A stretch of DNA of 41,147 nucleotides from NCBI GenBank assembly GCA_016839515.1, contig JAEOUE010000206.1, positions 1-41,147 of the forward strand, read 5' to 3'. The notes under the pieces are model-generated. The model saw only the letters and a list, made by a program, of their open reading frames with translations, had not been told where the DNA came from and ran no database searches. How positions within the stretch are numbered: the first letter of the stretch is position 1; each line of letters opens with the position of its first letter. Shown here piece after piece: positions 8,674 to 39,748 of this stretch. The translations under genes were made by a program, and so were the position numbers. The DNA is from Candidatus Hodarchaeum mangrovi. GTDB taxonomy: Archaea; Asgardarchaeota; Heimdallarchaeia; Hodarchaeales; Hodarchaeaceae.

Positions 8674-9363
8674 TAATTTAAATATCAACACCAAAGAATA
8701 TTGAAGAAATTCTCTGCAACAATTACTACGGTGTAAATATGTATAGTGTTTTTACACTGACAGAGGCATATACAACTTAGTATAGTGATGAACTAATCAA
8801 TCAGGCCAATTTCTATTTATTTTATATTTAGCTCTAAGCAGGATTTTAAAAAATGATAGAATAGACAGTCAAAAACTGGCGTTTAATTCAATAAAAACTT
8901 TACATTTTCTCTGTATAGCTTAGGTGTCAGCTATCTTTTTCTAAATGATAAAAATCATCACTATTTTCCAATAACCGATAATTGTTTATTCAATATTTTG
9001 CAGGAAAATCCATTTAGAGATTTTTTCTTTTCAATTTCTTATTTTTTAACTTGTTTTAAAAAAAAGCTACAATTTAATGATCTGAATTCATCTTTAACTA
9101 AATCTAATCTCTTAGAAAATTTGCTATATCAAGTAAAAAACCATAGGTTCCCAGCTTTTTAACAATTTATTGATATTTAATGTTTTTTAAGGATATAAAA
9201 ACTAATTAACAATCGATAACAGATTAGAGTAATCACTGTCCAATATAATGAGAGGAGGGGACGTATGGGGAAAAAAAATAAATCGAATATTTTTAAAATA
9301 ATGATTTCATCTAATTTACATAGAGAAGATTTAATTTTTTTAAAAAGGTATGAGGTTTTGAAA

Positions 9364-16100: not shown

Positions 16101-17719
16101 TAGAATACATTTACTCAAATATGACTATTGGGACTGTTCGTTTATGGTTGCTAGTTTTTAACCCTTTTAACGATCATGAGGTTTACATTAGTATCTGGAA
16201 TTATACATCCGGAATAATTCTGAAAGATAGAATCCTGATGGTTTCAAACGGAACTCATTTAATTTTTGATCTAAAAATCCCTTATAACTTTCTTTTCAAT
16301 TATTTAATTGATGTAAATGACCCAGGAGAAACAACAGGATATTATATTTTAGAGAATATTTCTGGTACTCATCGAATGCTAGATATTTGGCCTCCGAGTA
16401 TCAATGAAGTAGGTATATGGAAAATAAACGATACTTCAATACTTATTTGGGCTAATGTAACCGATGAAGGATCAGGAGTTTTTAATGTATACGCGTATAT
16501 TGAATTTCTGGAGCAAGATAAAATTGTTGGATTTGGCTCTACAATCCAAGCTAAAAAAACTCTAATGGAATTTAACCAGACCCATTACATCTCTTATTTA
16601 GTTTTTACGAAACCTTCTACATTGATATGGTACATCGAGGCATCTGACAACGTAAATCTTCATATAAACAGTATTTCTAAAACATTTGAGTTCCAATTTG
16701 AAATGGGAAATCCTATTCAATTTTCAAGTATTCCTCTTGAAATGATTATTGTTGCTATAATAGTAGCTTTATGTGGATTTATTCTTCTCCTAAGTATTTC
16801 AAAAACCTATAAAAAACGAAAAATAAAAGAAATGCAACATATTAATTTACTAGAGGAAAAATTAAAGTCAATACTTGATGTGTATATGGTTTTAGTTACC
16901 ATAGGGTCAGGATTACCTGTATATTCAATAAATAATTTTATTTATCGATCAACGAGAACAATTCAGAGTGAATTAAGTGGTCTCTCGGTGGGAATTGATA
17001 CATTTTTAGAATCATTCCAATCAGATTTCATTAGTTATCTTTTAGAGCCAACTCCCAACACTGAAGTAAATAATCTATCAGATAATGTTCGATTAAGTGT
17101 CATAGATAAAAATAAGTTTAAAGTTTTAATTATTTCCTCAATAAGTTTCAAAATATTTATTTTTATGAAGGAAGTACCTTTACAATTCATGAAAACTACT
17201 TTTAGAAAGATTATTCTTTTATTAGAAGAAAAAATTACCTTGAATCAACTAGGAGTTATCGACGAGTCACTCATTACTCCAGTTGTGATGGAAATTATTC
17301 AACAATTTTTTCCAATAAATTTACTTTCTCCATTTAAGGTCAATATAAATCGATTAATAGATATTGAAAAGGAAATAGAATTAGGTAAAATGAAAAGCCT
17401 CTCTAAATCATCTCTAAACGCTCTTAAACGACTGATTACTATAAAATTTAGTCATGAAGCTCGCTCAATAAAAGAGAATGATCAGATAGACCTATATAAC
17501 ACACTTTTAAAAGCAGGTCGATTTAATGAAGAAGTACCCTTTTTATACAATGAAGCACTTGAGCTATTGAAAAAAGTTTTAAAAATTCGATGTGAAGAAA
17601 TCTATGAGATTCTTTGGTTAGGAAGTTTACCATCAATGAATCTATTTCTTCCCTACAAATTAACTGAAGATATTGACCATATGGATTCTTTAAATGCAGA
17701 AAGGGAACAAGATGGCTAA
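10121..17719 (+). CDS. Giant single-pass surface protein: 2x(DUF2341+LamG), Asp-box propeller region, Ig-like repeats, TM helix, ~300-aa cytoplasmic domain (start uncertain; track start 10355)
   Basis: Two tandem 'YRK.I.IN...DL.NFPVL...QADGDDI.F...MYYGNP...VWHL...IDE.R.S...W..TEY.N' modules; Asp-boxes TTDNGFSW and STDGGRTW; repeated D..(A/P)P.I boundaries; TM IIVAIIVALCGFILLLSI followed by KKRKIK. Frame is open upstream to 10109 and encodes a signal-peptide-like stretch. Confidence 0.85.
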   Translation: MIYRKQENNVFILISFLLLLIILLQPITQINFLAESKSPRFIIDQKVQFLRNYDLLFFQDHIKIADCKTDSSTLHDQIMHEKQYNSSSYLRAGISSNIWSQPSYSYRKVITINSSKINADLENFPVLIVLFDDSLRYHTQADGDDIIFVDQNDNILAHELEYYDVTFNSTHAHLIAWVCLPKLSSQNDTSFFMYYGNPNAANLENPNNVWDRYYRAVWHLSESGDGSINDFIDSTIYNNHGQGNGGIPTQIDGIIDSAQVFNSTNEEYISIPNSISLQILQHLTIEAWVKNTGPSGAYMGIAGKLDDTDDNGYALVRHSDNKFKFWVGDGTMTSADSDTTFTDTNWHHVVGVIDNGINYLYVDGKLQIDTDDNTLVDSGSIGHIGRQYYNYNDRFWNGLIDEVRISNVSRSADWLTTEYNNYYQPYSFYSIGFQEIYNDWGAPAFEYKKEIVINHEKVHADLYDFPMLLSIYDTDLRIHTQADGDDILFLDEFNQKLDHEIELFDYINATHAYIRMWIRIPLLSSTTDKKITMYYGNPTFESIENSAGVWMNNYAGVWHLGPSLQDSTSSGINGTKHGTTDETAVIGLGQKFDGIDDYIQLGVWDPKIGSGNYTISAWIQLDNAFNTSSSESMPIFGHYYNSSYNMAFTFAGQDNSHGSNGILYCKTEGYTWYGNYDYIDSITSSWAASTWFYLVCSVDQDNSIGTIYINGIGEGSMSNTGTPTFGSFGNYSIGRIDLDQTPSETLKFFEGIIDELRLSKRVLAEGWVITEYENQLNPQSFYSINLQELRDLNTTKISEMIIDTNVYDATDEYNPGPNVVFINDSHGYAFFQKTNGGISEIVYYKTTDNGFSWNGPINIDCGPPIYRFRSFSCWYDRWTPGNYGTKIHFIANSIDYDEMVYNSLDTKNDETGGNWQRVLDSGGAHNAPDGGGTVTISTETYRFCASWMTNGPQFAKYDTSFHDITPLYSILDDDDDHGQLLPLSNGDILCIYEDVTANELYSFVYHESLDAWDNNPTFLATITTGTETPEDDYNNNANWGAVLDPNTFNIYLVFNNDVFNATGDLETWIFYDSNRTWSHRSNVVTNVGIMGDEVKPAFDPYSDTLFAIYIIGNDIFVKNSTDGGRTWGEEIEVSIASESWIVLRTNFLSIDKIFAIYFDDVNDDVYGAIVVDLEHKLDNATIQVNVLDLDNKLVENAQITLTNSQNSSLTWTKNTTFQGMAIFTNLTFNYYNLTVKYKSSINDSLAFLEVFSYSDFQITPYFEYTIRIAEYSDETPPIIQNIHFENQSLIFNNVSTFFADVWDDSSSIVVKLNLTVTNISNGFIFIQGNFTMQHLSSNTYYNKTALDSLLERNVEVIYNIIAIDIANNSFSSSYYFVYLGDNFAPIIVDYNAIDFKNGTVEFYTNVTDNMSSIQDPVIIQIDGELFSMHRNESGFWVYRTFAQYGISLNYSIYSVKDIIGNENGSKLYTLTPSHRIIIPADLEAPIIIDIGHTFNSHDNGFVDFFVSIEDQNNYQSGVNTSSILIFFSEDGVNSTYSMVEFEDLYYFRKQFEFNITVIYWISAADLAGNIFIGLIQGPYIMRDVIDPIVSYWNVDQGNGTIDFFAEVIDWPFNTTSVFLVFTQDYFGEWTNLSMSKKTNTSFHIRVPSLDYHQKNVWFYICAVDEYGNWNNNGIYQTANILLEDSIQPVIFLTVENSTTNDCEITVFSYATDSFGDNFYVNNTFWIKFHFSNYSITQEMIYDTFYRYYYKYTFSFNERVEILVWVEDNAHNVGMINKTITIVDLTPPRIDSYGIDNHQNGNLTIWALIIESENGSGLLDNDSAVLLNFIYTSAKTVTMSWNGSGNYFSCTLQDFFPGQAFTYNITAFDKMGNSQSTTWNPYYVKDNTAPFCSDYGVKYEYCNHTAISLLFWAEAYDSYGSIKNLTLNLYNNNLSQILELFSNGTHYIKKAEIGCNQSYSFYLTVFDGELNSHTVYSTELKTLDFCSTEIIDYDIEYIYSNMTIGTVRLWLLVFNPFNDHEVYISIWNYTSGIILKDRILMVSNGTHLIFDLKIPYNFLFNYLIDVNDPGETTGYYILENISGTHRMLDIWPPSINEVGIWKINDTSILIWANVTDEGSGVFNVYAYIEFLEQDKIVGFGSTIQAKKTLMEFNQTHYISYLVFTKPSTLIWYIEASDNVNLHINSISKTFEFQFEMGNPIQFSSIPLEMIIVAIIVALCGFILLLSISKTYKKRKIKEMQHINLLEEKLKSILDVYMVLVTIGSGLPVYSINNFIYRSTRTIQSELSGLSVGIDTFLESFQSDFISYLLEPTPNTEVNNLSDNVRLSVIDKNKFKVLIISSISFKIFIFMKEVPLQFMKTTFRKIILLLEEKITLNQLGVIDESLITPVVMEIIQQFFPINLLSPFKVNINRLIDIEKEIELGKMKSLSKSSLNALKRLITIKFSHEARSIKENDQIDLYNTLLKAGRFNEEVPFLYNEALELLKKVLKIRCEEIYEILWLGSLPSMNLFLPYKLTEDIDHMDSLNAEREQDG

Positions 17720-18302: not shown

Positions 18303-19667
18303 TTATGGATAGTTAGGAAGGTATTTTAATCCACTTTGACCCCATGAATTAAGAGCTGCATTTAATTCAGGATATTCAGATTCATGCTCATCAACAAAAT
18401 CTTCTAGATCCTCACTAGCCTCATCTAGATGGCTGACACCTATATCAATAATTTGTCGGAAAGCTTTAGTCCCTGCATAAGTCCCTTTTGGGTGACTATG
18501 GATTGCAGAGCCCGCTCCAATCATAATATCTGTACCGAGGTCTTTAATTAATTTTAAAACAATTCCTGGAGTTACACCTCCAGCAGGCATAGGTAAGGTG
18601 GGTTTTAGATGCCAAAAAGGATAACGTAAGACAGTGGCACAGGCAAAATAACGATCACGAAGAAAAGGAGCTTTCCCATAAACTCCAGGATAAACAAGGA
18701 TGTCTAATCCTGCCATTCGTGCGAATTTTCCCATAATTAAATTCGAAGAGATTCCTGACACTTCTGATTCATAAAATACTCCTGCATGATCCATATGACC
18801 TAAAACTGGTAATTTAATACTAGGATCTTCAGTAACCGTTCTAACTGCAGCTAATCCTGCTGTCAAGTAATTAATCATTAGTCCATTTGTACCATATGAA
18901 ATTGCTTTCTCTGCATGATCGATCATCTTTGTAGGTTCATCAGTGATATTAACTAAATAAATTGTATCTTCACCAGTTTCCTCTTTAGCTTTATCCACTT
19001 GTTCCATATTTTTTGTTATTCGTTCTTCTAGTGGTAAATATTTGATATTACCTGCCAAACTTTCATTGTCCTTAATAAAATCAGCTCCTCCTCTCGCAGC
19101 TTCATAAAATGTCTTAATTCCGTCTTCTATTGTGTATGCGTGATTTATATTGGTTAACATTGGTCGTTCTGGAATTTTTAATTGTTTTCTTAATCCTTGA
19201 ATCCCAAATTTTGGTCCCTTGAAATTTTGAAGAAATTCAGAAGGAAATTGTACATCTAGGAGCTTAACTTTTCCCCCTAAGGATATATTACCTGCTAATG
19301 TTGTTAATAACAAGGGAAATTGAGGTTCTAGTCCTTCAATTGGATATGCGATCTGAATAATGTATTGACGTTCCTTCAAGTCTGGTGGAACACTGATTTC
19401 AAAAGGAGGAGTACTATAAAGCCCAATAACTTTTCCCGCAAATTTTTTAAGTATATCTTTTGGATCCGAAGTGACAGGCAAAAAGGATCCAATCGTTTGT
19501 TCTTTTACCATTACCCTCCCGATATAATAAGGATCTAAATTACCCGCTAAACAAATATAATAAGTACCTATGACATATTTTTCAGGTTCGATTGATTCAT
19601 GGATTCCTTCAAGATAATGTCCCCATTGTTGTTCTGCATAATCATCAAATTTATTCACTTTTGGCAT
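18303..19667 (-). CDS. RuBisCO-like protein (form IV / RLP), divergent active site
   Basis: EQTIGS, LAGNIS, GPKFGIQGLR, GGADFIKDNE, YLVNIT, RMAGLD, PMPAGG, IHSHPKG...G.KAFRQ; lacks the K175/K177 motif; GGAG SD. Confidence 0.92.
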   Translation of the reverse strand: MPKVNKFDDYAEQQWGHYLEGIHESIEPEKYVIGTYYICLAGNLDPYYIGRVMVKEQTIGSFLPVTSDPKDILKKFAGKVIGLYSTPPFEISVPPDLKERQYIIQIAYPIEGLEPQFPLLLTTLAGNISLGGKVKLLDVQFPSEFLQNFKGPKFGIQGLRKQLKIPERPMLTNINHAYTIEDGIKTFYEAARGGADFIKDNESLAGNIKYLPLEERITKNMEQVDKAKEETGEDTIYLVNITDEPTKMIDHAEKAISYGTNGLMINYLTAGLAAVRTVTEDPSIKLPVLGHMDHAGVFYESEVSGISSNLIMGKFARMAGLDILVYPGVYGKAPFLRDRYFACATVLRYPFWHLKPTLPMPAGGVTPGIVLKLIKDLGTDIMIGAGSAIHSHPKGTYAGTKAFRQIIDIGVSHLDEASEDLEDFVDEHESEYPELNAALNSWGQSGLKYLPNYP

Positions 19668-28507: not shown

Positions 28508-29158
28508 TTATGATAGTAAAGGACCATAAAATTCGAGAAAAGCTTTAACCATATCATCAAATGGAAGATCAGCATAGACTCCCCGATCTTTAATATAATC
28601 GACGAATTGTCTTCCTTTAAGATCATAAGATTTAAAAATCGCGTCATTTGAACCTGTAAAATCACAAAGTGGAAAATCGTGCTTTATGCATAACGATGAC
28701 TCAAAGGAAGGAGTTAATTTATACCATTTATCCAGAAATACCTCGGCATATCCATGAAAGATAAATACATTGCTACCCCCCATAAGATCACGAAAATGCT
28801 GAGGACTCCGATGATTAATTATATCAGCAAAATGAAGGCGAGCTGGTATATCATTCGCTCGTAATAAAGCTACTAATAATATTGATTTTGGTATACAAAA
28901 ACCCCTTTGAGCCTCCAAAGTTGAACTGGCTTTGAATCCTGAAGGATTATCAATTTGAAAATCTTTTATGGTATAAGGGAAATTATCTCGTACAAATCTA
29001 AAAGTCTGTATAGCAAGATCCTTTTCCGAATTACTTGAGCTTTTTAGGTTATTTGCAAGAGCTCTTATTTTTTCTGAATCTGAATCAATAAAAAAAGTGG
29101 GTTTTAAATAAGCATCATTATTCATGGCATATCTATCCCTAATAGTCAGTGAAATCAT
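28508..29158 (-). CDS. Transglutaminase-like protein
   Basis: 'ASSTL...GFCIPKS.LL.ALLRA..IPARL', 'HGYAEVF...W' (catalytic Cys/His); true start may be the second Met (MNNDAYL). Confidence 0.9.
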   Translation of the reverse strand: MISLTIRDRYAMNNDAYLKPTFFIDSDSEKIRALANNLKSSSNSEKDLAIQTFRFVRDNFPYTIKDFQIDNPSGFKASSTLEAQRGFCIPKSILLVALLRANDIPARLHFADIINHRSPQHFRDLMGGSNVFIFHGYAEVFLDKWYKLTPSFESSLCIKHDFPLCDFTGSNDAIFKSYDLKGRQFVDYIKDRGVYADLPFDDMVKAFLEFYGPLLS

Positions 29159-29270: not shown

Positions 29271-30008
29271 TTAGGAATATGTACGGTTAAAATCCTCATG
29301 GCTAGAACCAGAAATTCCACCTTGAAAATTCTTTGATTTTCCTTGAAATATTAGGTTTATACAAGTTATTAGTTGAAAAAATGTTGATACAAGAAAATAA
29401 TAAGCAAAAAAAATCATTATTGAGGCAAAAGAAGACCAAATAATCGAAAAAACAGCTGTTGGATAAGGTAAATTAATCAAGACACAAAGGTAAATCCAAA
29501 TCAAATAACCATCTGAGAATGCCCCGAGAGATGTTGGTAGAATGGGAAAAAGATTAGGAAAATCAGCTAATAAGCCAAAAATGAGATAATAACGTATCAA
29601 TACGAATAGATGAGATTTCTTATTCCTAGAAAAATAATAAAACCCAAATACAGCCAATAACAAGGTTAAAGACCCAGAAAACATTACTATAATAGAATTA
29701 AAGCAAATAGGGAGGCCGCTTGTTGTGAGCTGAGCAAAATTAAGGCTAAATTCATTAAGATTAATTTTAATTTGAGGATTAGAATTTGGTAAGAAGAATA
29801 GAGCTGAAAAATAATGACCTAACTCATGAACGAGAGTGAAAGGAAGGAAAAGTACATTTAATATCAATTTAAAGGATGGGATTATTTGACAAAACAAAAT
29901 AACTGCAAAACAAAATATTAAAAAAGGTTTTAAGGCATTAAAGAGCTGGGAACTGACTACATCTGAACTACCTGAGAAGGAATGATTTAGCTTTCGGTTC
30001 CACATCAT
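29271..30008 (-). CDS. M50-like (site-2 protease-type) intramembrane metallopeptidase
   Basis: HELGH within a hydrophobic helix and NLFP...SDG third-ligand motif. Confidence 0.75.
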   Translation of the reverse strand: MMWNRKLNHSFSGSSDVVSSQLFNALKPFLIFCFAVILFCQIIPSFKLILNVLFLPFTLVHELGHYFSALFFLPNSNPQIKINLNEFSLNFAQLTTSGLPICFNSIIVMFSGSLTLLLAVFGFYYFSRNKKSHLFVLIRYYLIFGLLADFPNLFPILPTSLGAFSDGYLIWIYLCVLINLPYPTAVFSIIWSSFASIMIFFAYYFLVSTFFQLITCINLIFQGKSKNFQGGISGSSHEDFNRTYS

Positions 30009-30223
30009 TTATTAAATTGGAGGAAGTACCTAATAAATCCTTCTTAAAATTAAAAACTTTTAAAACATTTTTAAGACTTTTAACATTTAAAAATGAAAAA
30101 AGGTTTAAAATTATAATGAAAGTAAAAATCGTTTAAAAAAAAAGATCTAGAAGTACGCTTTGATACTTCTTAAAAAAAGATTAGAGGAGGATATTTTATG
30201 TTATTTTAGTCGAACTTTGATTT

Positions 30224-30952
30224 TTAATCAACTAAAATACGTTCTTTGCCAGTAACCATACCCCGGAGTCGATTTCTATTTGCTGGAATAATAGCAAAAT
30301 AAAAATGAATTATAGTGGTTCCCAAGAAATAAAGATAAACTAAGAAATGAATAAATCGGATATCAAGGAAGAAGACCTCAAATGGAATTAAGAAAACCAA
30401 CAATAGACTCAAAAACATTGTTGATCCAGGGGAAACTTCTTCAGCGAGAGCAATCCCGGTAACACCCATGATAAAAATAGCCATTAAATTTGTGAGGGAT
30501 AATAGCTTTTGTGCAGGATGATATTTCATGATATATTCTTTCTTTTCAACAATATAATAATCGTAATGTGGATATTTTTCATCAGGAAGAATATTTAGAG
30601 CACAAAGAAGAATGATCCCTAGGTCTAAAAAATCTCGAGGAGTGGGAATTAAAGAATGAACTTCCTTTCCGAGAATAACAACAGATGTAAAGAAAATTAA
30701 GTCCCATACTCCGATAAATATTCCAAACATAAAATGTATTGACCGTGTGAAGATGTAATCACCGATGAAATACATTTGTAGAACAAGCTCTAATCCTGTA
30801 AAGAAGAATAAAAGCATTGTGAACACATGTACCCAATGATGCAATCTTTGAGCATTATTATATCTCTGAGCTATTATTACATTTGATGGAGAGGCTGCTT
30901 TTGACGAATCTTGTTTCTTCTCTTTTGCAGAATTAACATTAATTGTAGTCAT
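30224..30952 (-). CDS. Di-haem cytochrome b (FdnI/HyaC-like)
   Basis: Four TM helices with His in 'QRLHHWVH', 'RSIHF', 'RFIHF', 'IIHFY'; 'KYHPAQKL'; 'LRGMVTG'. Confidence 0.85.
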   Translation of the reverse strand: MTTINVNSAKEKKQDSSKAASPSNVIIAQRYNNAQRLHHWVHVFTMLLFFFTGLELVLQMYFIGDYIFTRSIHFMFGIFIGVWDLIFFTSVVILGKEVHSLIPTPRDFLDLGIILLCALNILPDEKYPHYDYYIVEKKEYIMKYHPAQKLLSLTNLMAIFIMGVTGIALAEEVSPGSTMFLSLLLVFLIPFEVFFLDIRFIHFLVYLYFLGTTIIHFYFAIIPANRNRLRGMVTGKERILVD

Positions 30953-30988
30953 AATTCATCACATTCATTATCAAAATTACTTTGCTAC

Positions 30989-31891
30989 TTATTTTTTCGT
31001 TGAAAATGTTTGGTTCCATCTTTCTTTAAGAGTTGGAGGTTTGAATGTAGCTGTTGTTACTCGATTATAATCGTGCTGTATCGGATTGGTGATTACACGA
31101 CGCATTAAATGGAAAATCACGAACCCTAAGACTCCGATTGGTGCTACTCCAATCAAAAGAAACTTCAATTGACTTAGATCTTGTACTTGGGGAATCTCGG
31201 GTATAATAACAGGATTAGTACTATTAGTATTATTATTATTTTCTTCTCCAACAGGATCAGTTCTTACTAGAAGATAATAAAATGTATGTTTTTTGATATG
31301 ACTGCCTTTTGAAGCAAATTGCATTATATTTATGCTTCCATTCTTAAATACTATATCGTAACCTTCAGTATCTTGTGTATTGAAGGGTCTGATTACTTCT
31401 ATGTAAACTTGGTTTTCGACAACAACACTTTCAAAATTCAGATCGTTTTTGTTATCATCAGATGGAATTACAGTTCCTACAAACTTTACATCTTTTGCTG
31501 TAACTTCAGATGTCTCTTGATTAATGTAAAATGTCCAACCATCATTTAAGTTCTTCATACAAGTAGAAGGATCAGGTTCAAACTCTACAGAGATCCAAGC
31601 TACATCAACTGAGCTAACAAATAAAGAAAATAAATGTGTTTCATTATTAGCAAACTTTACATAACCCCCATCTTTAAATTCAGATATATTTTGATATGTA
31701 TAAACAGATTCCCACTCAGATTCGATTTGACCGTCTGTTAAATTTAATTGAGAGATAACTGGAGCAATAAAACCATCCATTGTCTCTGAAGCTACAGCAG
31801 GACCACCTTGAATTAATGAAAAACCCATAAAACTAAGAAGAATAAGGCTAATCCCAGAAAATAGAGAACTAATAACTTTCTTTTTTCTCAT
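30989..31891 (-). CDS. Secreted, membrane-anchored DOMON-like (putative haem b-binding) protein
   Basis: Signal peptide; 'DG.I..EW', 'WIS..F...CM..LNDGW', 'RPFNTQD..YDI.F', late His 'SHIKKH'; Asn-rich linker; C-terminal TM. Confidence 0.65.
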   Translation of the reverse strand: MRKKKVISSLFSGISLILLSFMGFSLIQGGPAVASETMDGFIAPVISQLNLTDGQIESEWESVYTYQNISEFKDGGYVKFANNETHLFSLFVSSVDVAWISVEFEPDPSTCMKNLNDGWTFYINQETSEVTAKDVKFVGTVIPSDDNKNDLNFESVVVENQVYIEVIRPFNTQDTEGYDIVFKNGSINIMQFASKGSHIKKHTFYYLLVRTDPVGEENNNNTNSTNPVIIPEIPQVQDLSQLKFLLIGVAPIGVLGFVIFHLMRRVITNPIQHDYNRVTTATFKPPTLKERWNQTFSTKK

Positions 31892-32607
31892 TTTTTTCCT
31901 CTCATTTTAATTGAAGAATTATTACCAAGCATCTTTAAAGAGGGGATCTTCTTTGAATTCGATTTCATAAGTTTCTATGATTGATAAATTCTGTTACTCA
32001 ATGTTAAGTTTTAATTACTGATAAAGGTCTATAATCGTTTCTTAAGTGTCTAAATGTATGGAGGAGATTTCTTTATTCTAGAAGTATCCCCTAGCTAAAG
32101 TCTGCTTGATGGTAATACTTCAGGTATAACACATTTCTTATTTATTTATTAATTTAATGAAATAAATGTTTAAACATTTTTTAATTAAAAAATTCAAAAG
32201 AGGAACACTAAAATCAAAATAATATTTCCATGAATAAGCCAATCTTCTTTCTACAGTTGATAAAATTTATCATTCATTTAAGATTGAAGAAGAGATAAAT
32301 AAAAGATATATTTCAGCATAAATTCTTTTATTTAAGGCTAAAATTCTGTTACAATCACTTATTCTTTAAACCTACGTTATCCTATAGGATTTTAATAATA
32401 CATATAATGTGTTAGAAATTTTTGATTTATGAGAAGTTTATGGACTTACAAGAAAATGAAACACACTGGATAAATCGAGGTGTAGACACTTTTTCTGATT
32501 GAATCTACCACATCTTGACAAAATTTTGATGAAAAATTTCATCATTATATAAAAAATAAATTGCAAAATGCTTTGAAAATACACATTTTCCTTAAATTTT
32601 GTTAATT

Positions 32608-33273
32608 TTAATCCTTCTTTACCCTATAAAGACAACACTCATCCCCATCTCTTATACATTTTGTTTTTTCGCACTTTTTGCCAATTAATTCCCTCATAAT
32701 CGTTTCATCAACTTTACACACTAAAGGATTCTCTTTTACTACCCCGTAAACAAGGCAATTGAAGTTTTGAATGTCATAAGAATCAGCTGTTTCTATTAAA
32801 GAAGGGTATTTTCCATATTCTCTCAAAATCTCTGTTACTGCTTTAATTCTTTCATCTAACGTTGCTTCTTCTGGATTTTTCCCTAAAATCTCTTTTAGAT
32901 AGGGCCGTATTTCTTCAGCTATTTCTTTACCCACATCTTCAAGTACATCCTGTGTAAGTTCGACTCCAAAGCGATTCTTTAGCTGAGTCAGCATTTTAAC
33001 AGTAAAGTCAACATAACTTTTTGGAAATTTCTCTAGGGCACTCTCATGCAAAGCGTAAACCATCGCAGGACGTCCAGTGGTACTTTTTCTTTGAGAACGT
33101 GTAACAAGACCCTCTTTTTCTAGGTTAACTAAATATTGTCTGGCAGCATTTATACTGATCTCAAGTTCATCCGCAATATCTTTTACAAGAACAGCTTTAT
33201 CAGGGGCATTTCTGTTAACTAAGAGAAATTGCAAAATTTTTTGACGAGAAGATAAAAACTCTTCACTTTCCAT
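32608..33273 (-). CDS. HTH transcriptional regulator with Cys-containing sensor domain (SufR/COG2345-like)
   Basis: 'IADELEISINAARQYL..LEKEGLV...TGRPA.VY.L'; C-terminal 'NCL', 'VC..D', 'CI..GD.CC.Y'. Confidence 0.85.
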   Translation of the reverse strand: MESEEFLSSRQKILQFLLVNRNAPDKAVLVKDIADELEISINAARQYLVNLEKEGLVTRSQRKSTTGRPAMVYALHESALEKFPKSYVDFTVKMLTQLKNRFGVELTQDVLEDVGKEIAEEIRPYLKEILGKNPEEATLDERIKAVTEILREYGKYPSLIETADSYDIQNFNCLVYGVVKENPLVCKVDETIMRELIGKKCEKTKCIRDGDECCLYRVKKD

Positions 33274-33583
33274 AGGATTTTCACTATTGTATTGTTATTG
33301 AAAATTTTCTGACTAGTTATAATTATAAATCATTAATATATTTTTTCTATAATTTCAGAATAAAATGATATTTTATAAATTTTAATGTAATTTTTTTTTT
33401 AGCTCAGAAGAGAAGCTTAATGAATATGCATTTATCCTTTTTAGAGAAAAATATCGATAATATGCGAGGAGGGAACAAACTAAATTCAATATTGTTAACT
33501 GGTAATGAATTGTAATTAAAAAATAATTTTGCAAGTTTTGTAATTAAAAAGTTTTAAAAATTCCTAAAGTATTAAAATTAATT

Positions 33584-33602
33584 ATATGGTAATTTACCAT
33601 AT
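33584..33602. promoter_or_regulatory. Perfect inverted repeat ATATGGTAA-T-TTACCATAT, candidate operator
   Basis: 9-bp arms located between the divergent regulator and the cytochrome c gene. Confidence 0.55.
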
Positions 33603-33717
33603 CTCAAATGTAAAGCTACGATTGTCGCAGAAACCATTGGACGATATACAAATCACCAAGAGGTAACGCATAAATAAATCGTACTAAGTTAACTGAATAT
33701 TATGGCGGTAATATTTT

Positions 33718-35025
33718 ATGAACGACCAAGAAGAAATTCTTCTCGTACAGAGTCGGTGGAATAGCAAACGGTTTTTCTTATTTTACTGGTTTGTAATTGC
33801 GTTTTTAGGAACAGGGTTTGCAATTGGACTAGGAACATCAGTATTAAGTCCTAAATATTCAATCTCTAGTACAGCTGCTCATCCCACCATTGACGAACCA
33901 TGGCATCCAGAAGACTGTACTCTCTGTCACTCTGAACAGGTAGAAAAATGGAATGAAACTGGCCATTCAGTAGCTGCTATTAAGGTTAATTCTACTCATG
34001 TAGAAATTGCTGGATCACGCAATGTTACACAGGAACAATTTGATAGTTCTTGTGGTCATTGTATGGCAACTGGATGGGATAATAGTACTGGAAGTGTAAC
34101 ATATTGGGATTATGGTGTAACATGTGCTTCATGTCATGTGACACCAGGTGAAACAGATCTCACAGCAGAAAACTGTGGACAATGTCACACGGGTTCAAAC
34201 CACCCTCAATACCCCGATTACAATATGAGTGCTCATGCTAGGTCTTATGATGACTTACTAGCATCAGGTCATGCATCAGATAGTTGTTTACATTGTATGA
34301 GTGGGCAAGGAACTTATACGGAAGGTTTGTCGCTTAATGACACTTTTTTGACTAGTGTTTCTTGTGCAACCTGCCATGATCCTCATGATGCAACTAATGA
34401 ACTACAGCTTCGAAAAGATGATATTACGGAACTCTGTGGTGAATGTCATGGAACATCATCACGGCACACAACTTATGAAATGTTCACTGACCCCAAGAAC
34501 AAACATAATTCATTAGATTGTACTGATTGTCATGGTTATGAATTACACGATAGTGAGGCATCTGTTAATCATACTTGGGTTGTTACAATTGATTCTTGTG
34601 CACAATGTCATACTGATAACGTAACCCGTTGGGCTAAGATAGAAGAGATCCAAGGAGACATTAGCACCCTACTCTCTGAATATGAAACTCAACTTACAAA
34701 TGTAACAGCGAAATTCAATGAAGCCAATAATACCTTTGGTTTAACCAACCCAAATGTTAATGAGTCATATATCCTTATTAATGAAGCAAAGGCCCTTGTT
34801 ACATTCGTTCAAAGTGATCAAAGTCTTGGATTCCATAACCCCAGTTTAGCTGAAGAAAAGGTCAAATTAGCCTTACTCAAACTTGATGAAGCATATGAGA
34901 AAGCAGTTAATGCTAGTAATACAAAACCAGGTGGTTTAACTCCAGGTTTTGAATTAATTAGTATACTAACCTCTCTAGGTCTTTTAGGGATTGTTTTTCT
35001 GATCCGTAAGAAAAAACAACACTAA
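33718..35025 (+). CDS. Surface-anchored multihaem cytochrome c (7 CxxCH + 2 CxHCM) with c552-like helical C-terminus and PGF-type sorting signal
   Basis: CTLCH, CGHCM, CASCH, CGQCH, CLHCM, CATCH, CGECH, CTDCH, CAQCH; 'D.S.GFHNP'; 'TPGFE'+TM+RKKK; N-terminal hydrophobic helix. Confidence 0.93.
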   Translation: MNDQEEILLVQSRWNSKRFFLFYWFVIAFLGTGFAIGLGTSVLSPKYSISSTAAHPTIDEPWHPEDCTLCHSEQVEKWNETGHSVAAIKVNSTHVEIAGSRNVTQEQFDSSCGHCMATGWDNSTGSVTYWDYGVTCASCHVTPGETDLTAENCGQCHTGSNHPQYPDYNMSAHARSYDDLLASGHASDSCLHCMSGQGTYTEGLSLNDTFLTSVSCATCHDPHDATNELQLRKDDITELCGECHGTSSRHTTYEMFTDPKNKHNSLDCTDCHGYELHDSEASVNHTWVVTIDSCAQCHTDNVTRWAKIEEIQGDISTLLSEYETQLTNVTAKFNEANNTFGLTNPNVNESYILINEAKALVTFVQSDQSLGFHNPSLAEEKVKLALLKLDEAYEKAVNASNTKPGGLTPGFELISILTSLGLLGIVFLIRKKKQH

Positions 35026-35065
35026 ATGACTAAAAAACATACTTTCAATTCCATCATGAAGGTAT

Positions 35066-35106
35066 TGAAAGCTAGCAATTCAGCTAGCATTCATACCTCT
35101 TTTTTT
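35066..35106 (+). terminator. Hairpin plus T-tract after the cytochrome gene (possible partial terminator)
   Basis: TGAAAGCTAGC-AATTCA-GCTAGCATTCA (one mismatch) followed shortly by a T7 run. Confidence 0.4.
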
Positions 35107-35253
35107 CAGCTGAAGGGGAGGATTTGCAGTATTATTTCTTATCCATTACCTAATATATAGATTAATTTAACTTTTAAGTATTTTTTCTTGGTCGTTCATG
35201 AAAATACCAATAAAATCCCAAAAAAATAGAGAATAATGTCGTTATAAGATAGG

Positions 35254-37440
35254 ATGATTAAATCGATGATTAATGAGAATTATATTCACCAAAATATTAA
35301 ATTAATGATAAAATTGTTAGCAATTTCAATCTTAATTGTTTCAATAATTTTTCCATTAGTCTCTGTTGATCCAACAAACAATAAAGAGAGTCAAATTACT
35401 ATTAAAGATTCTCATAAAACAATATATTCTGACGGAATACCTTTTGAGATCTCTTTTAAAACAAGTTCTTCTAATCAGGCTCCCGATGAAAATCCTGAAG
35501 CTTATTTTACTAATTTTCTGCACTATTCCATTCTTGCAGCCAATGCATTGATAGACCATCTATACGATAATGAGAAGGGAGGATTTTTTCGGTCAGCTAA
35601 TGAACATTGGTTTGAAACCAGCATTGATTCAGACAAAAGGACTTATGATCAAGCCCATGCTATTCTTGGATTATTGAAACTGTCTGAGGCAGTTATTAAC
35701 GAGACCCAAAGCGAGTATGCATTGGAGATTGCAGAAAGAACTGGAAATTATCTAATAACTGAGTTGTATGATGCTGATTTTGGTGGTTTTTTTACTGGAA
35801 CTGCAGATAGATACAAAAGACCAGGCATTGAAGGTAAGGTTATTGAAGCCTTGATTGCGCTTTATAAATCCACTGGAAATTCCACATATCGAACAATAGC
35901 AGAAGAGACTTTTAATTTCATTAATACCTACGGATGGGATCAGATTGGAGGAGGATATTATTCTAAACTCTCACATGCAGGAGCTATAGCCTCCCCAAAT
36001 TTAGAAGATCTATATCAACCTGATTGTAAAAGAGTAGATTACAATGCATTAATGGGTTGTGCCATATTAGAGCTTTATAATTTGATTGGGGATTCAAGTT
36101 ATTTGGATCGAGCAGTTGAAATTTATAAATTGATGAATAATTCCTGTTTTAATAATGAAACAGGACTGTTTTACGGAGGATATGGGAGTAATGGAAATAT
36201 CGTAGACAGTGATTCCTCAGAACTTATTGTAAATACCTTTATGATAGAATTTTTAGTAAAATTATATAATATAACACAAGAAAATAATTATTTAGATTGT
36301 ATTACCTCATTAATTAAAAATTTGATATTTAATTATTGGGATGATAGATTTGGAGGGTTTTATTCAACCTATTGTTATTCTAATGAAGAAGATAAAGATC
36401 TAAAGAAATATACTGAAAGACAATTTTATGCTATTCGTGCTCTTGATGAAGTCTATAAATTGACAAATAATAACCTTTACTATAATCTGATCTTTGACAT
36501 GATGGAATTTCTCAATACAAATTTATATGATCAAGGTCATGAAGGATACATTCAATTATCGAATGAAAACGGAGACCCAGGTGACCCAACATGGAAAAGT
36601 AAATTTTCAGTTACACAAGCTCTAGCAATCTATGAATTATCAAATCTTTGGCTTTATAGTAAACCAGGAGTCCTTAATGCCATGTGGATTCCTTCATTAC
36701 CAAGACCTCAGGATCCTGTTATGATCTTGGCTGCAGCATTCGATTCTGATGGAGTTGCAGATGTTTTCTGTAATTATTCAATTGCAAACCAACCATATGC
36801 TTTAGTTGAAATGCAAAAGGATTCAAAAATTGGAAATATGTACAATGCTAGCTTTGATCCTCAACCAGAAGGAACGGGGATTAATTTTAATATCATAGTA
36901 AATGACACGTTGGGGAATATTGCCGTTCGAGGATCCTATTTTTTCATTTGGCAGTTTGACCTTTGGAGTCCCCATGTTGAGGTTCTCAGGATCGACCCTG
37001 GGTTAGAAGTTCCAGTCTATAAAGGGGTAAATATTACTGTAAGTGTTCATGACACTCCTGTACAGGGTTCAGTATCTAATGTGCGAATTTATTATCATCT
37101 GGAAGGCAAATCAGAGGATTCCAAAATTTTAACACAGACTGGTCTTCATATTTGGCAAGCTATTTTTAAAAATGGTTTTAATGTTCCTGGAACATATGCT
37201 TTTTACTTTGAAGCTATCGATGATCGCGGAAATTTTGGTTACACAAGTGTTGGCTATTTTTATGTCTTGGGAACTATAGAATCTATTCCATTTATTACAG
37301 TAATCGGAGGTCTCTTTTTTATACTTTTTATTGCCCCTACTGGATTTGCTTTGTTTAAAGAGTATCAAAAAAGAAATGCAAAAAAGAGTTTACGTAAAAT
37401 TAAGCATTCTAAACGAGTGAAACGGAGAAGGACAACTTAA
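35254..37440 (+). CDS. Membrane-anchored extracellular (alpha/alpha)6-barrel protein (AGE epimerase/GH76/YyaL-like) with two Ig-like domains
   Basis: Repeated '(L/W)YD...GGF(F/Y)' units, 'K.TYDQA', helical 'LY..TG...Y...A'; signal peptide; C-terminal TM plus basic tail. Confidence 0.75.
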   Translation: MIKSMINENYIHQNIKLMIKLLAISILIVSIIFPLVSVDPTNNKESQITIKDSHKTIYSDGIPFEISFKTSSSNQAPDENPEAYFTNFLHYSILAANALIDHLYDNEKGGFFRSANEHWFETSIDSDKRTYDQAHAILGLLKLSEAVINETQSEYALEIAERTGNYLITELYDADFGGFFTGTADRYKRPGIEGKVIEALIALYKSTGNSTYRTIAEETFNFINTYGWDQIGGGYYSKLSHAGAIASPNLEDLYQPDCKRVDYNALMGCAILELYNLIGDSSYLDRAVEIYKLMNNSCFNNETGLFYGGYGSNGNIVDSDSSELIVNTFMIEFLVKLYNITQENNYLDCITSLIKNLIFNYWDDRFGGFYSTYCYSNEEDKDLKKYTERQFYAIRALDEVYKLTNNNLYYNLIFDMMEFLNTNLYDQGHEGYIQLSNENGDPGDPTWKSKFSVTQALAIYELSNLWLYSKPGVLNAMWIPSLPRPQDPVMILAAAFDSDGVADVFCNYSIANQPYALVEMQKDSKIGNMYNASFDPQPEGTGINFNIIVNDTLGNIAVRGSYFFIWQFDLWSPHVEVLRIDPGLEVPVYKGVNITVSVHDTPVQGSVSNVRIYYHLEGKSEDSKILTQTGLHIWQAIFKNGFNVPGTYAFYFEAIDDRGNFGYTSVGYFYVLGTIESIPFITVIGGLFFILFIAPTGFALFKEYQKRNAKKSLRKIKHSKRVKRRRTT

Positions 37441-37479
37441 CGATCAAGAGTTCAAGAAAATTAAGAGAAGTGTTAAACC

Positions 37480-39714
37480 ATGTTTGATATTGGATTTGGT
37501 ATTGCAGTTATTGATTTAGGAATGTTATTACTCATAATTGCATTAATTACATTTCTAGTAGATGTGTTTTTAGTGCTATTAGGTGAGTATATAGATAACT
37601 GGGAACAATATTCAGAGATTGCTTTTTCGATTGGGTGCTGTGCTCTTATTGTTGCATTTATTTATTTCTTTAATGCAGTTGTTTCAGCAGATTATAGCTT
37701 TGTTTATGTCACCGATACAGTAAATAATGATATGGATTTCTTTATGCGTGTATCAGCAGTTTGGTCAGGTCAAGCAGGATCCTATTTCTTTTGGGCTTTT
37801 CTTACTGTTATTATCTATCTAATTTTCAGAACGTTATTCCGTGATTATGCTCATGAGAGAATATTTTGGCGATCATTTGTAATATTAGCCCTTCAAACAG
37901 CAATCTTTACCTCCTTGACCATTCTAAGTGATCCTTTTAGTCTTGAAACTGAACCAATTATTGATGGAATAGGTCTCAATCCACTATTAATGAATATTTG
38001 GAATTTAATCCACCCACCAATAATTTTTATTGGATATGCACTTTGTTTGATACCTTTTACAATTGGAATTGCCAGGCTTACAGTTCTTGAAGAAGGAAAT
38101 ATCCCAGATTTTGATGGAAAAGAATTTTTAGATAACTTTGTAGAATTTTTTGTCTCATTAGCATGGCTTGTTTTAAGTTCAGGTATCATTATCGGAGGAT
38201 ATTGGGCTTATGTCACTCTTGGTTGGGGTGGTTTTTGGGCTTGGGATCCTATTGAAACAGCTTCTTTGATACCTTGGTTGTTCCTGACATTATATTATCA
38301 TGGAAAACCATTTCATAAGAAAAGTATTTTTCTAGTAAATTATATTCTTAGCATGTCGTATATATCTACATTATTCGCTACTTATCTTACAAGGAGTGGT
38401 ATCGTCTCAAGTGTTCATGCATTCAAACCATCAAATACCCTGGAAAAATTCCTCTCAGGTTTTATTCCCCCTGATACCTTTGTAATGAGTATTATATTAC
38501 GTATTATCCCAGATGAAAAAATCCTATTCTTATTCATTGTTTTGATTACTTCTTTCCTTATTCCTCATATAATTGGATTAACTCGAGGAGACCTAAAACA
38601 TCTTCCGATCTCATTATCGAGAGAGGATTTCCAAGTTAATAAACATAAAAATACTACTCTAAAAATATCATTTATTACATTCTTTATCGGAATTTATGTT
38701 ATTATACTAGGATTGCTCGCTCCCGTCATCTACGATATTTTAGGGTATTTAATAAATTTAAATTCAATTGGATTTAATTCTGGAATAACAGTTGGTTCTA
38801 TATTCTATAATACTGTTCTCACCATTTTTGGAGGTATAATGCTTCTTTCGCAATTCTTCTGTACATTCTATCCCAGACTTGAAATAAAAAAGAAGTTTAT
38901 ATTAATGCTTGGAGGAATGTTAACTGGTGTTATTTTTGCTATTAGTAGAATCCTTTACTCAAACGGATTTTTAATTCAAGTTCTCGGAGAAAAAAATCCC
39001 CTCCTTGAATTTCTGAATATCTTCTGGACTACTAGTGATAAAGCAAATTTAGTTCTTCCTCTTCTCTTTTTAGGAATAGTTGGATTAATTATAGAATTTT
39101 TCCAAGTTTCTTTTTCAGTTGATAAAAATTTTATTAAAAAGACATCACAAATAGTTTTACATCTTTCTTTCCTTTTAATTCTTGTAGGTGCACTCTTAAG
39201 TGCAAACAGAACTCTAACGACTGAGTTGGAAGTACAACCAGGGGAATTTCAGATTTCGGGGACTTCTCTTACCATAAAAGTTACAGATTTAGATAAAACA
39301 GTTCTTTCTTCAGGGGTTCACGCAGTTGAATATGATACTGAGTTTTTCCTGACTTCAGGATCCCGTGTAGTAGGCTTTGGAATAAGTCGATTAGCTTTAG
39401 ATAATGTTGGACGCTTTGATTATGAGGTAACAATAATTAGTGATCTTTTTTCGGATATCTATATTGTAACTGCAGCAGCTTATGAATCACCTATTTCTGG
39501 GCTTTTTGTTGCCTCTCGATTGCAAATAAAAATAATCCCATATATTAATATATTATGGGCAGGTTGTTTCTTACTACATTTTGCCATTATTCCTCTGAAT
39601 ATTGGTAGATTCATTTCATTAAAACGATCAATATCCCGTGAAGAAATACTTAATTCAGAGGAAGCTATAATACCCTCCCCTGGAATAGAAACTCCAATAA
39701 TCAAAGAAACTTAA
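37480..39714 (+). CDS. ccmF: Cytochrome c maturation haem lyase CcmF/NrfE-type
   Basis: 'W.GQ.GS..FW', 'G.GLNPLL...IHPP', WWD motif 'WAYVTLGWGGFWAWDPIETASLIPWL', 'TRSG..SVHAF', 'P.INILW.G'. Confidence 0.92.
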   Translation: MFDIGFGIAVIDLGMLLLIIALITFLVDVFLVLLGEYIDNWEQYSEIAFSIGCCALIVAFIYFFNAVVSADYSFVYVTDTVNNDMDFFMRVSAVWSGQAGSYFFWAFLTVIIYLIFRTLFRDYAHERIFWRSFVILALQTAIFTSLTILSDPFSLETEPIIDGIGLNPLLMNIWNLIHPPIIFIGYALCLIPFTIGIARLTVLEEGNIPDFDGKEFLDNFVEFFVSLAWLVLSSGIIIGGYWAYVTLGWGGFWAWDPIETASLIPWLFLTLYYHGKPFHKKSIFLVNYILSMSYISTLFATYLTRSGIVSSVHAFKPSNTLEKFLSGFIPPDTFVMSIILRIIPDEKILFLFIVLITSFLIPHIIGLTRGDLKHLPISLSREDFQVNKHKNTTLKISFITFFIGIYVIILGLLAPVIYDILGYLINLNSIGFNSGITVGSIFYNTVLTIFGGIMLLSQFFCTFYPRLEIKKKFILMLGGMLTGVIFAISRILYSNGFLIQVLGEKNPLLEFLNIFWTTSDKANLVLPLLFLGIVGLIIEFFQVSFSVDKNFIKKTSQIVLHLSFLLILVGALLSANRTLTTELEVQPGEFQISGTSLTIKVTDLDKTVLSSGVHAVEYDTEFFLTSGSRVVGFGISRLALDNVGRFDYEVTIISDLFSDIYIVTAAAYESPISGLFVASRLQIKIIPYINILWAGCFLLHFAIIPLNIGRFISLKRSISREEILNSEEAIIPSPGIETPIIKET

Positions 39715-39748
39715 CAAAAATAATATAATAAGAAAGAACTTTTAATGC

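Follow-up and report, generated by a model that had tools for sequence, protein, structure and literature searches.

We analysed a 41,147-nucleotide stretch (the window) of contig JAEOUE010000206.1 from the Asgard archaeon Candidatus Hodarchaeum mangrovi and found that its cluster of haem-protein genes is made up of two separable redox modules, each conserved by itself, that are kept as neighbours in one Hodarchaeales genus. Module B (29271-33273) encodes a di-haem cytochrome b, an exported DOMON-like protein, an HExxH membrane protein and a Cys-rich regulator. Module A (33718-39714) we propose to be a self-maturing cytochrome-c cassette, composed of a nonahaem cytochrome, a co-inherited, anchored (alpha/alpha)6 protein and the haem lyase CcmF. 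A preliminary description of the region had named the genes of both arms around a helix-turn-helix regulator, and this content was confirmed: the six open reading frames (ORFs) between 30224 and 39714 are intact, of full length and placed as described there, and each is backed by family or fold matches. The HExxH gene had been overlooked. We consider the odds to be even that the two modules together form a chain leading from quinol via cytochrome b and the DOMON protein to the surface nonahaem cytochrome and on to an external acceptor, under control of the SufR-like regulator. All functional statements made here derive from sequence, predicted structure and gene neighbourhood.

We compared the occurrence of the two modules across genomes. 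The cytochrome is found in 15 of 20 sampled genomes of the Hodarchaeales genus, and 14 of the 15 genus genomes with the DOMON-like gene also encode it. Of the 14 genomes with both modules, 10 have them on one contig at a distance of 1.6-20 kb. ccmC adjoins the regulator-DOMON-cytochrome b unit in four genomes, followed in G004 by ccmA and ccmB. The synteny comparison did not bear out the 'self-contained' locus of the preliminary description, as the arms are co-located in this one genus only, and there within 20 kb in the 10 genomes just mentioned. Several counts weigh against an obligatory chain. In the other four of the 14 genomes the modules are far apart (146 kb, 2.2 Mb and, in two cases, on different contigs); G013, which is 91% complete, has module B and lacks the cytochrome, and three genus genomes have the cytochrome and lack module B. 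Among the 301 Asgard genomes sampled, the cytochrome was found in 31 of the 76 f11 genomes and the DOMON-like gene in none of them, while family f5 contains the DOMON-like/cytochrome b pair in 5 of 11 genomes and the cytochrome c in 0 of 11. Genes for the DOMON protein, cytochrome b, regulator and HExxH protein are present within ~9 kb in none of 10 loci from families f11 and f22. The genomes compared are moreover related to each other, and co-occurrence counts thus overstate independence. The cytochrome-c cassette is found without DOMON and cytochrome b genes in Bathyarchaeia as well as in f11. With each arm occurring alone in whole families, the arms are therefore modules that are each able to work alone. 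The DNA between the arms varies within the genus: G009 and G011 carry an insert of ~7 kb (L013:3829-10399, L024:4306-10584), which in G009 includes a UbiA prenyltransferase and an MFS transporter, and G019 has a TldD/PmbA metallopeptidase pair in this position (L016:9039-11786).

The cytochrome b matches PF01292 with 39.6 bits (cut-off 30.1), and four histidines (His-39, His-73, His-202 and His-216) are invariant in 27 of 27 aligned relatives, in agreement with the di-haem cytochrome b proposed previously. Its family comprises 55 clusters, in which every organism name given by the source is an Asgard label. We propose from these features that the protein acts as a quinol-oxidising transmembrane electron wire. 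The 300-residue DOMON-like protein has no Pfam match, even at E 10. Its AlphaFold2 (AF2) model (pLDDT 70) matches CBM9, NxrC, EbdC and the cytochrome domain of cellobiose dehydrogenase (Foldseek E 1e-5 to 1e-3), and its profile aligns with that of a PF03351 DOMON protein from the same genome (hhalign probability 90.6%, E 1.3e-6). Distant family members hit PF03351 directly on the same domain, and a precomputed PF03351 match exists in 1 of 38 close clusters. The DOMON-like fold assigned to the exported protein in the preliminary description is thus supported by Foldseek, hhalign and the distant PF03351 members. The family is small: clustering at 90% identity gives 38 clusters, and 81 representatives were found among 1.84 billion proteins. 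Met-112, His-86, His-198, His-202 and Lys-79 are invariant (in 25 of 25 sequences for Met-112, His-198, His-202 and Lys-79); Met-112 aligns with a Met of the PF03351 paralogue and His-202 is one column off its C-terminal His. An ectodomain of approximately residues 40-210 is followed by a conserved C-terminal transmembrane helix with an invariant His-261, and by a conserved cytoplasmic tail. We infer haem binding from this pattern and propose that the protein is an extracytoplasmic b-haem carrier.

Three other PF03351 DOMON genes are present in the genome, and each has a membrane redox protein as its neighbour, directly or at a distance of one gene. The first encodes a 568-residue DOMON+DUF7282 protein, with a 51%-identical paralogue of cytochrome b one gene away (C340:1471-4889). 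The other two, on C179 (~11.2-12.1 kb) and C261 (~6.0-7.6 kb), have a COX3-like protein and a NapH-like Fer4_5 protein as partners. PF03351 matches were found in 0 of 14 control genomes. In Hodarchaeales, DOMON proteins beside coxABC are described in the accessible part of Appler et al. (10.1101/2024.07.04.601786). From the neighbours of these three genes, DOMON in this organism seems to be an electron carrier of general use on the outside of the cell.

All 12 genus loci, and both f5 loci that extend past the DOMON-like gene, have the DOMON and cytochrome b genes next to each other. We predicted the complex of the two proteins, as the preliminary description had suggested, and obtained a weak pass for this pair, with a score of 0.60 (runs of 0.65, 0.55 and 0.60) compared with 0.00 for the best of three controls, in a setting that used our own alignments and included haem, both of which lie outside the calibration. 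In that calibration the mark was reached by 116 of 157 solved complexes and by 2 of 215 mismatched pairs, and scores of 0.60 or below were obtained for only 18 of the 157 solved complexes, and for the two mismatches that passed. At least 70% of contacts are shared between the runs, and the partner pLDDT is at least 73. A fusion of cytochrome b and DOMON-like domains was found in none of the 18 family representatives scanned out of 81, chosen mostly for their greater length; the extra parts of the longer representatives are DOMON or Ig domains. The literature searched returned no match for a bacterial periplasmic DOMON protein paired with cytochrome b561.

The HExxH gene follows the cytochrome b gene in 10 of 12 related genus loci. 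Its product is polytopic, has a downstream N-x-x-P...DG motif in an alignment of 11 sequences and has no Pfam match even at E 10; we take it to resemble an intramembrane metalloprotease of the site-2-protease type. A transglutaminase-core protein (28508-29158) is encoded just downstream of the cytochrome b module and has a 39% identical counterpart in an f5 locus (L040:7611-8267). It is possibly an additional member of the b-haem module.

The regulator matches MetOD1 with 33.8 bits (cut-off 23.8) and is SufR-like (E 2.9e-21), yet its 76.1 bits stay well below the equivalog cut-off of 178.8. Six Cys residues are located in its last 50 residues (173, 186, 201, 206, 213 and 214), and in 10 of the 12 genus loci its gene is found upstream of that for the DOMON protein. 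On the basis of these sequence features, we propose that it is an Fe-S or redox-sensing protein. The 716-nt spacer between the regulator and DOMON genes presumably holds the promoter of the b-haem operon; it contains no ORF of 60 residues or longer and weak repeats only. The 444-nt intergenic region on the other side of the regulator gene carries a 13-nt exact direct repeat (33510-33522 and 33538-33550). We found no operator shared by these two regions, only AT-rich weak repeats and the one 13-nt repeat, and no Rfam family between 29000 and 41147. A second SufR-like paralogue (40-45% identity), which has no counterpart in the window, is encoded downstream of the HExxH gene in L013, L014, L015 and L024 (and L017). 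The product of window positions 1646-2362 shares the regulator's weak ATC_hydrolase-type C-terminal match.

These features can be arranged into a sequence of electron transfer steps. The Cys-rich SufR-like regulator would control the operon of DOMON protein, cytochrome b and HExxH membrane protein. Cytochrome b, as suggested by its family and its four histidines, would oxidise membrane quinol, and its two b haems would carry the electrons across the membrane. They would then pass to a putative Met/His-ligated haem in the DOMON ectodomain, which its own transmembrane helix would hold at cytochrome b; the adjacency of the two genes is observed throughout, and the complex prediction lends weak support to their contact. 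In this genus, the DOMON haem may in turn reduce the surface nonahaem cytochrome, a hand-over suggested by gene linkage. By analogy with OcwA, the cytochrome could finally reduce an external acceptor such as Fe(III)/Mn oxides, humics or a partner cell or, alternatively, small nitrogen or sulfur oxyanions at two open haems. The relay from quinol via cytochrome b to DOMON is well supported by inference, and its hand-over to the surface cytochrome is plausible. From the chain drawn in the preliminary description, the pairing of cytochrome b with DOMON has held up, in gene order and in the weak pass of the complex prediction, while the failure to find ccmA, ccmB, ccmC and ccmE in the assembly and the restriction of co-location to one genus count against the self-contained locus described there.

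Beyond the genome counts, further points speak against the chain. The DOMON haem is inferred from a model of pLDDT 70 for a protein that has no Pfam match of its own, and hhalign of this protein to the second DOMON paralogue (C179) returned a probability of 1%. None of the 23 runs listed for the locus is RNA. Met at a proximal-ligand position, as seen in two haem motifs of the cytochrome, has no natural precedent that we could find, and both sites may not bind haem as assumed. ccmE, ccmC and ccmB were not found in the 91%-complete assembly (with Pfam models and, for ccmE and ccmC, also with the proteins of the closest relative). Instead, ccmF is followed by an unrelated SDR gene, and this junction is bridged by independent contigs from runs X1, X2 and X4 of three studies. 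Maturation of the cytochrome in this organism is thus unproven.

The arms could be independent neighbours, a serious possibility that we nevertheless hold to be the less probable one. Cytochrome b and DOMON would then form a stand-alone transmembrane reductase, a two-protein counterpart of the ferric/cupric CYBDOM proteins, under an Fe-S-sensing regulator; alternatively, the pair would feed another extracellular enzyme. The cytochrome would draw its electrons from another source, perhaps directly from quinol via its N-terminal helix. The occurrence of each arm without the other in whole families fits such an arrangement, as do the three further DOMON genes that each neighbour a different membrane redox protein, the coxABC-associated DOMON proteins of Hodarchaeales noted in Appler et al., the unusually conserved N-terminal transmembrane region of the cytochrome, and a SufR-like regulator, which would suit iron or redox homeostasis. 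However, spacing below 20 kb in 10 of 14 genus genomes, together with ccmC beside the DOMON unit in four, exceeds chance in a 4-Mb genome, and another quinol dehydrogenase is found beside the cytochrome in 0 of the 22 genus, f11 and f22 loci examined.

The cytochrome contains nine C-x-x-C haem sites, seven of which are CXXCH and two CXXCM (motif 2 at residues 112-116 and motif 5 at 190-194). Its AF2 model (pLDDT 78.4) has a C-terminal three-helix bundle formed by residues 301-340, 345-367 and 375-401. The best Foldseek match is OcwA (6i5b; E 5.6e-12, TM scores 0.56/0.51, ~19-20% identity), with an S-layer undecahaem cytochrome, octahaem nitrite reductases, NrfA, HAO and MccA ranking behind it. 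A profile of 37 sequences searched against PDB sequences also returned OcwA first (E 1.3e-40), in three stretches over profile positions 56-400 of 450. OcwA is described, in the available part of its report, as a nine-haem terminal reductase of extracellular electron transfer in which haems 2 and 5 are open distally beneath His-His motifs (PMC6703420). Motifs 2 and 5 of our cytochrome align exactly with these open haems, and the second His of the distal His-His motifs is retained (His-162 in 17 of 18 ungapped sequences, His-250 in 21 of 37). PF02335 matches residues 246-396 only, that is, the C-terminal 150 residues, and an NCBIfam search returned no NrfA match. A hydrophobic segment is located at both ends of the protein, corresponding to an N-terminal transmembrane helix, whose sequence is unusually conserved, and a C-terminal tail resembling an archaeal sorting signal. 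This tail scores 23.3 bits for Heimdall-CTERM (cut-off 24), and an exosortase-family gene is present in the genome. We read the protein as an OcwA-like, predicted surface cytochrome (c554-like haems 1-4 and NrfA-like haems 5-9) rather than as NrfA, because the NrfA hallmarks, five haems and CXXCK, are missing. The automatic name 'nitrite reductase c552' given to these archaeal proteins is probably wrong. The surface-type multihaem cytochrome of the preliminary description is thereby retained, with an extracellular electron transfer reductase as its best solved relative by both Foldseek and profile. No description of Hodarchaeales multihaem cytochromes or, among the papers listed, of this locus was found in the main texts of the literature searched, whose supplements may list such homologues, and the accessible part of Soares et al. 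(PMC9250108) makes no mention of Asgard.

Conservation differs strongly between the haem motifs. Seven motifs are CXXCH in all 37 relatives. Motif 5 retains both Cys residues in 37 of 37, and its fifth residue is Met in 27, Val in 4, His in 3 and Lys, Gln or Leu in one each. In motif 2 the first Cys is kept in 30 of 37, and the fifth residue is His in 18, Met in 15, Phe in 2 and Leu or Arg in one each. The motif at the catalytic position of the window's cytochrome is CLHCM. A natural CXXCM haem-c motif was not described in the literature we searched; the sole CXXCM report, as far as its accessible text goes, concerns an engineered mitochondrial cytochrome c (PMC4158909). A further trend in motifs 2 and 5 is that Met as the fifth residue usually comes with His as the third (CGHCM, CAHCM, CLHCM, CMHCM), which is never the case when the fifth residue is His (0 of 21 such motifs).

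The placement of these variants raises the question of whether the cytochrome is mainly an enzyme for a soluble substrate (nitrite, hydroxylamine, sulfite or polysulfide) at its open-site haems and no conduit to solids or partner cells, an idea that does not exclude the other alternatives and that we find rather unlikely. The active-site CXXCK of NrfA requires the dedicated lyase NrfEFG, a parallel to the variant fifth residue found here exactly at the two catalytic-type haems, and NrfE is the best NCBIfam match of our lyase. The protein also belongs to the NrfA/c554/octahaem superfamily, its relatives are automatically annotated as 'ammonia-forming cytochrome c nitrite reductase', its distal pockets are occupied by Arg-249/His-250 and His-162, and OcwA itself slowly reduces nitrite and hydroxylamine (PMC6703420, in part). 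Yet the nitrite turnover of OcwA is given there as ~1 per min, our protein carries nine haem motifs where NrfA has five, a single one of the 37 relatives has CXXCK and the PF02335 match is confined to the C terminus. The closest solved relatives are two cell-surface iron reductases, and the wide variation of the fifth residue, which includes Val, Leu, Phe and Gln, argues against one fixed catalytic chemistry.

We next consider the proteins encoded together with the cytochrome. The 728-residue protein matches the GlcNAc-2-epimerase family (E 1.3e-10) and N-acylglucosamine 2-epimerase in the PDB (E 6e-7). It consists of an (alpha/alpha)6 domain with AGE fold and a C-terminal beta-rich part, and has a hydrophobic segment at each end. 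Our guess, from the fold, is that it may bind glycans or the cell envelope. A redox or metal role, as a CcmH substitute or in LanC-like thioether chemistry, found no support and was rejected, since no Cys or His is invariant across 13 sequences and LanM is matched at E 3.8e-4, far under the cut-off. The CcmF-like protein matches PF01578 (84.7 bits, cut-off 29.9) and has a WWD-type motif at residue 249; it scores under the TIGR00353 and TIGR03145 cut-offs and is thus a divergent member, with NrfE as best NCBIfam match. As the nonahaem cytochrome is the only ORF of the assembly with at least three CXXCH motifs, and CcmF its only strong PF01578 protein, CcmF appears to serve this cytochrome. It may also handle the two non-canonical CXXCM sites.

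The cassette is conserved well beyond the window. Within the genus, the cytochrome gene lies 3.5-4.2 kb from ccmF in 19 of 24 copies; four copies are near a contig end and one is far from any ccmF. The (alpha/alpha)6 gene is located between the cytochrome and CcmF genes in all four genus loci in which the fetched DNA spans the cassette or enters the CcmF gene, the DNA of two further loci stopping within the (alpha/alpha)6 gene. Of the 10 loci from families f11 and f22 (~30% and 25% identity), 9 show the same order of cytochrome, (alpha/alpha)6 protein and CcmF, with ccmE, ccmC, ccmB and ccmA close by. In Bathyarchaeia, CcmF adjoins the cytochrome gene in 3 of 5 loci, and none of the five was found to contain the (alpha/alpha)6 gene. 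A stand-alone CcmF system lacking CcmE and CcmC was dismissed as a general claim, as relatives encode ccmE, ccmC, ccmA and ccmB beside the cassette. An NADPH-dependent FMN reductase gene (PF03358) follows ccmF in two of four scanned f11 loci (L033:15203-15832, L037:15188-15817); through it, the cassette of this family might receive electrons or be linked to a flavin shuttle.

In the closest relative, G019, ccmE, ccmC, an ABC ATPase gene and ccmB come directly after ccmF. The CcmE-like protein of G019 (L016:1309-1698) ends in C-x-x-x-Y, presumably the archaeal CcmE variant motif, and barely reaches the Pfam CcmE cut-off; this cut-off is exceeded in 13 of 22 genus genomes. In Methanosarcina acetivorans, ccmABCEF are each required for cytochrome c maturation, according to the accessible part of the report (PMC9084895). 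With ccmE, ccmC and ccmB not found, either these genes are part of the DNA that was not assembled or this organism does not mature the cytochrome. The second case, a decaying or incomplete cassette whose cytochrome stays unmatured for want of the other ccm genes, leaving no working chain, would account for the difference from G019 and for the SDR gene joined to ccmF in three runs of three studies, and would accord with the M. acetivorans requirement. We nevertheless regard it as quite improbable. The six ORFs are intact and of full length, and the locus is near-identical in 20 runs of 7 studies. In addition, the assembly (4.0 Mb) is split into 348 contigs and 91% complete, and one unassembled 3-kb piece could hold all of the ccm genes, which are clustered in relatives.

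It is extremely improbable that a hydrogenase or formate dehydrogenase from another locus has cytochrome b as its membrane subunit, as the similarity of cytochrome b to the HyaC and FdnI equivalogs (E 2e-7 and 2e-5) amounts to only 30.7 and 24.9 bits compared with cut-offs of 121.5 and 115.85, its gene adjoins the DOMON gene in 14 of 14 loci extending past the latter, and the [NiFe] hydrogenase of the genome is encoded together with MvhD- and MvhG-like proteins (MvhADG-like), the molybdenum enzymes of the genome being NuoG-like or, with an Fe4S4 domain from residue 24, devoid of a long leader. MvhADG hydrogenases are cytoplasmic, and PF01292 cytochromes b that lack a hydrogenase or formate dehydrogenase are not unusual (CybB, CbcL). 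The preliminary description had reported no hydrogenase, formate dehydrogenase or molybdopterin subunit nearby, and indeed none is encoded in the 41-kb window when all ORFs of at least 110 residues are scanned; the PF00384 and PF00374 matches of the genome are on contigs other than the window's. A search for a partner encoded elsewhere likewise found no hydrogenase or formate dehydrogenase in the assembly that would need cytochrome b.

Contigs from sequencing runs provide a separate view of the region. A contig of run X1 (depth 3, shorter side 20 letters) joins 30111 to 39711 with 26 other letters between them, and this joint skips 9,599 bases, almost exactly the block from cytochrome b to CcmF. 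A low-depth record of run X6 joins 32192 to 39716, loose ends cluster around 30092 and 39731-39734, and no boundary repeat is visible at the skipped block. The skip may reflect a presence/absence polymorphism of the locus or a related-strain artefact, short-sided joints being unreliable.

The coordinates of the features are collected in Table 1. The window belongs to a Hodarchaeales-type (Heimdallarchaeia) Asgard genome: close homologues of the three proteins searched are named as Hodarchaeales, Heimdallarchaeota or other Asgard metagenome-assembled genomes. These names, the Heimdall-CTERM-like tail and the gelsolin and Ras genes of the window uphold the Asgard origin suggested in the preliminary description. 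Away from the two modules, the window encodes a gelsolin-repeat protein (8341-8673), a Ras/Arf-type small GTPase (9265-9924), a 2,454-residue Laminin_G_3/DUF2341 surface protein (10355-17719) and a RuBisCO-large-subunit-like protein (18303-19667).

Table 1. Features of the two redox modules and the regions between their genes, in window positions
Feature	Position	Strand	Basis
HExxH membrane protein, 245 aa, fourth gene of the b-haem module	29271..30008	-	ORF, motif alignment
Di-haem cytochrome b	30224..30952	-	PF01292
Exported DOMON-fold protein, 300 aa	30989..31891	-	AF2 model, Foldseek, hhalign
AT-rich non-coding spacer, 716 nt, between regulator and DOMON genes	31892..32607	.	no ORF of at least 60 aa
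Winged-helix Cys-rich regulator	32608..33273	-	MetOD1, SufR-like
Divergent intergenic region, 444 nt, between regulator and cytochrome c genes	33274..33717	.	13-nt exact direct repeat
OcwA-like nonahaem c-type cytochrome, 435 aa	33718..35025	+	7 CXXCH + 2 CXXCM
AGE-fold (alpha/alpha)6 anchored protein, 728 aa	35254..37440	+	GlcNAc-2-epimerase family
CcmF/NrfE-type haem lyase (System I), 744 aa	37480..39714	+	PF01578, WWD-type motif

Models for the origin of eukaryotes depend on how an Asgard host exchanged reducing power with bacterial partners, and the debate has so far turned mainly on hydrogen and small molecules, to which aerobic respiration was recently added. A multihaem surface cytochrome of the type used for extracellular electron transfer by Gram-positive bacteria, present in 15 of 20 genus genomes and in 31 of 76 genomes of another family, would add direct electron transfer to this list, in a form that can be tested with defined proteins. 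In its widest form, the proposal is that a horizontally mobile, self-maturing cassette for a surface nonahaem cytochrome is shared by Hodarchaeales, the archaea nearest to eukaryotes, a further Asgard family and Bathyarchaeia, that both of its catalytic-type haems are attached through CXXCM, a motif undescribed in nature in which the proximal His is replaced, and that in Hodarchaeales the cytochrome is fed by a split, CYBDOM-like DOMON/cytochrome b relay. If true, cassette and relay together would connect Asgard cells electrically, and directly, with minerals or syntrophic partners; we advance this as a speculation that is unlikely to hold in full. Independently of it, the natural series of CXXC-M/V/K/H motifs at two catalytic-type haems should be useful for studying haem-lyase specificity and haem chemistry, the two-protein DOMON/cytochrome b module offers a prokaryotic working analogue of CYBDOM, and caution is advised with the automatic 'nitrite reductase c552' label for these archaeal proteins.

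We compared both modules to known systems, in the case of published reports as far as their accessible parts allow. With System I of M. acetivorans (CcmABCEF; PMC9084895) our cassette shares a CcmF with WWD motif and, in relatives, ccmE, ccmC, ccmA and ccmB alongside; it differs in having a single 744-residue ccmF inside the cytochrome's cassette, and in that ccmB, ccmC and ccmE were undetected in the assembly. The cytochrome resembles OcwA from Thermincola potens (PDB 6I5B; PMC6703420) in its nine haem sites and their order, its three-helix bundle, its predicted surface location and the second distal His. The archaeal protein departs from OcwA in having an N-terminal transmembrane helix and a tail of the archaeal sorting type, and in carrying Met in place of the proximal His at haems 2 and 5, where relatives also show other residues; in Asgard genomes an (alpha/alpha)6 protein and ccmF are invariably encoded alongside it. 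Relay cytochromes of the ImdcA/PdcA/CwcA type are not in the assembly, as no other ORF has at least three CXXCH motifs. NrfA and the octahaem nitrite reductases (2J7A, 2OT4) are homologous over haems 5-9 and the helical C terminus; a non-His residue after CXXC at the catalytic-position haem and a CcmF/NrfE-type lyase encoded alongside are further points in common. Our cytochrome differs in its nine sites, as against five or eight, in having CXXCM in place of CXXCK, and in lacking an NrfH or NrfBCD partner.

Like FdnI, HyaC and CybB, our cytochrome b belongs to PF01292, with one His in each of two early helices and two His residues 14 positions apart in the last, but it does not reach the equivalog level of FdnI or HyaC and is partnered by a DOMON protein rather than by a hydrogenase, a formate dehydrogenase or a fused c-type domain. 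A PF01292-type cytochrome b that serves extracellular electron transfer is known in CbcL from Geobacter. The DOMON-like protein has the same beta-sandwich fold as EbdC (2IVF_C) and NxrC (7B04), which are haem-b gamma subunits of type II enzymes of the DMSO-reductase family, and as the cytochrome domain of cellobiose dehydrogenase (1D7B). The axial haem ligands of known DOMON proteins are Met and His/Lys, and a conserved Met and His/Lys, as putative ligands, are found at the expected positions in our protein. Unlike these proteins, it has no molybdoenzyme or flavodehydrogenase partner nearby, and it has a C-terminal membrane anchor of its own with a conserved His and tail. In eukaryotic CYBDOM proteins, of which plant examples are transmembrane ferric reductases, DOMON is fused to cytochrome b561. 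Here, there are two polypeptides, the cytochrome is of the four-helix, prokaryotic PF01292 type and not PF03188, the presumed donor is quinol rather than cytosolic ascorbate, and the DOMON domain is too diverged to be detected by PF03351. The comparison implies no homology of the whole systems, although their logic is the same, with electrons passing from a di-haem transmembrane cytochrome b to an extracytoplasmic DOMON b haem.

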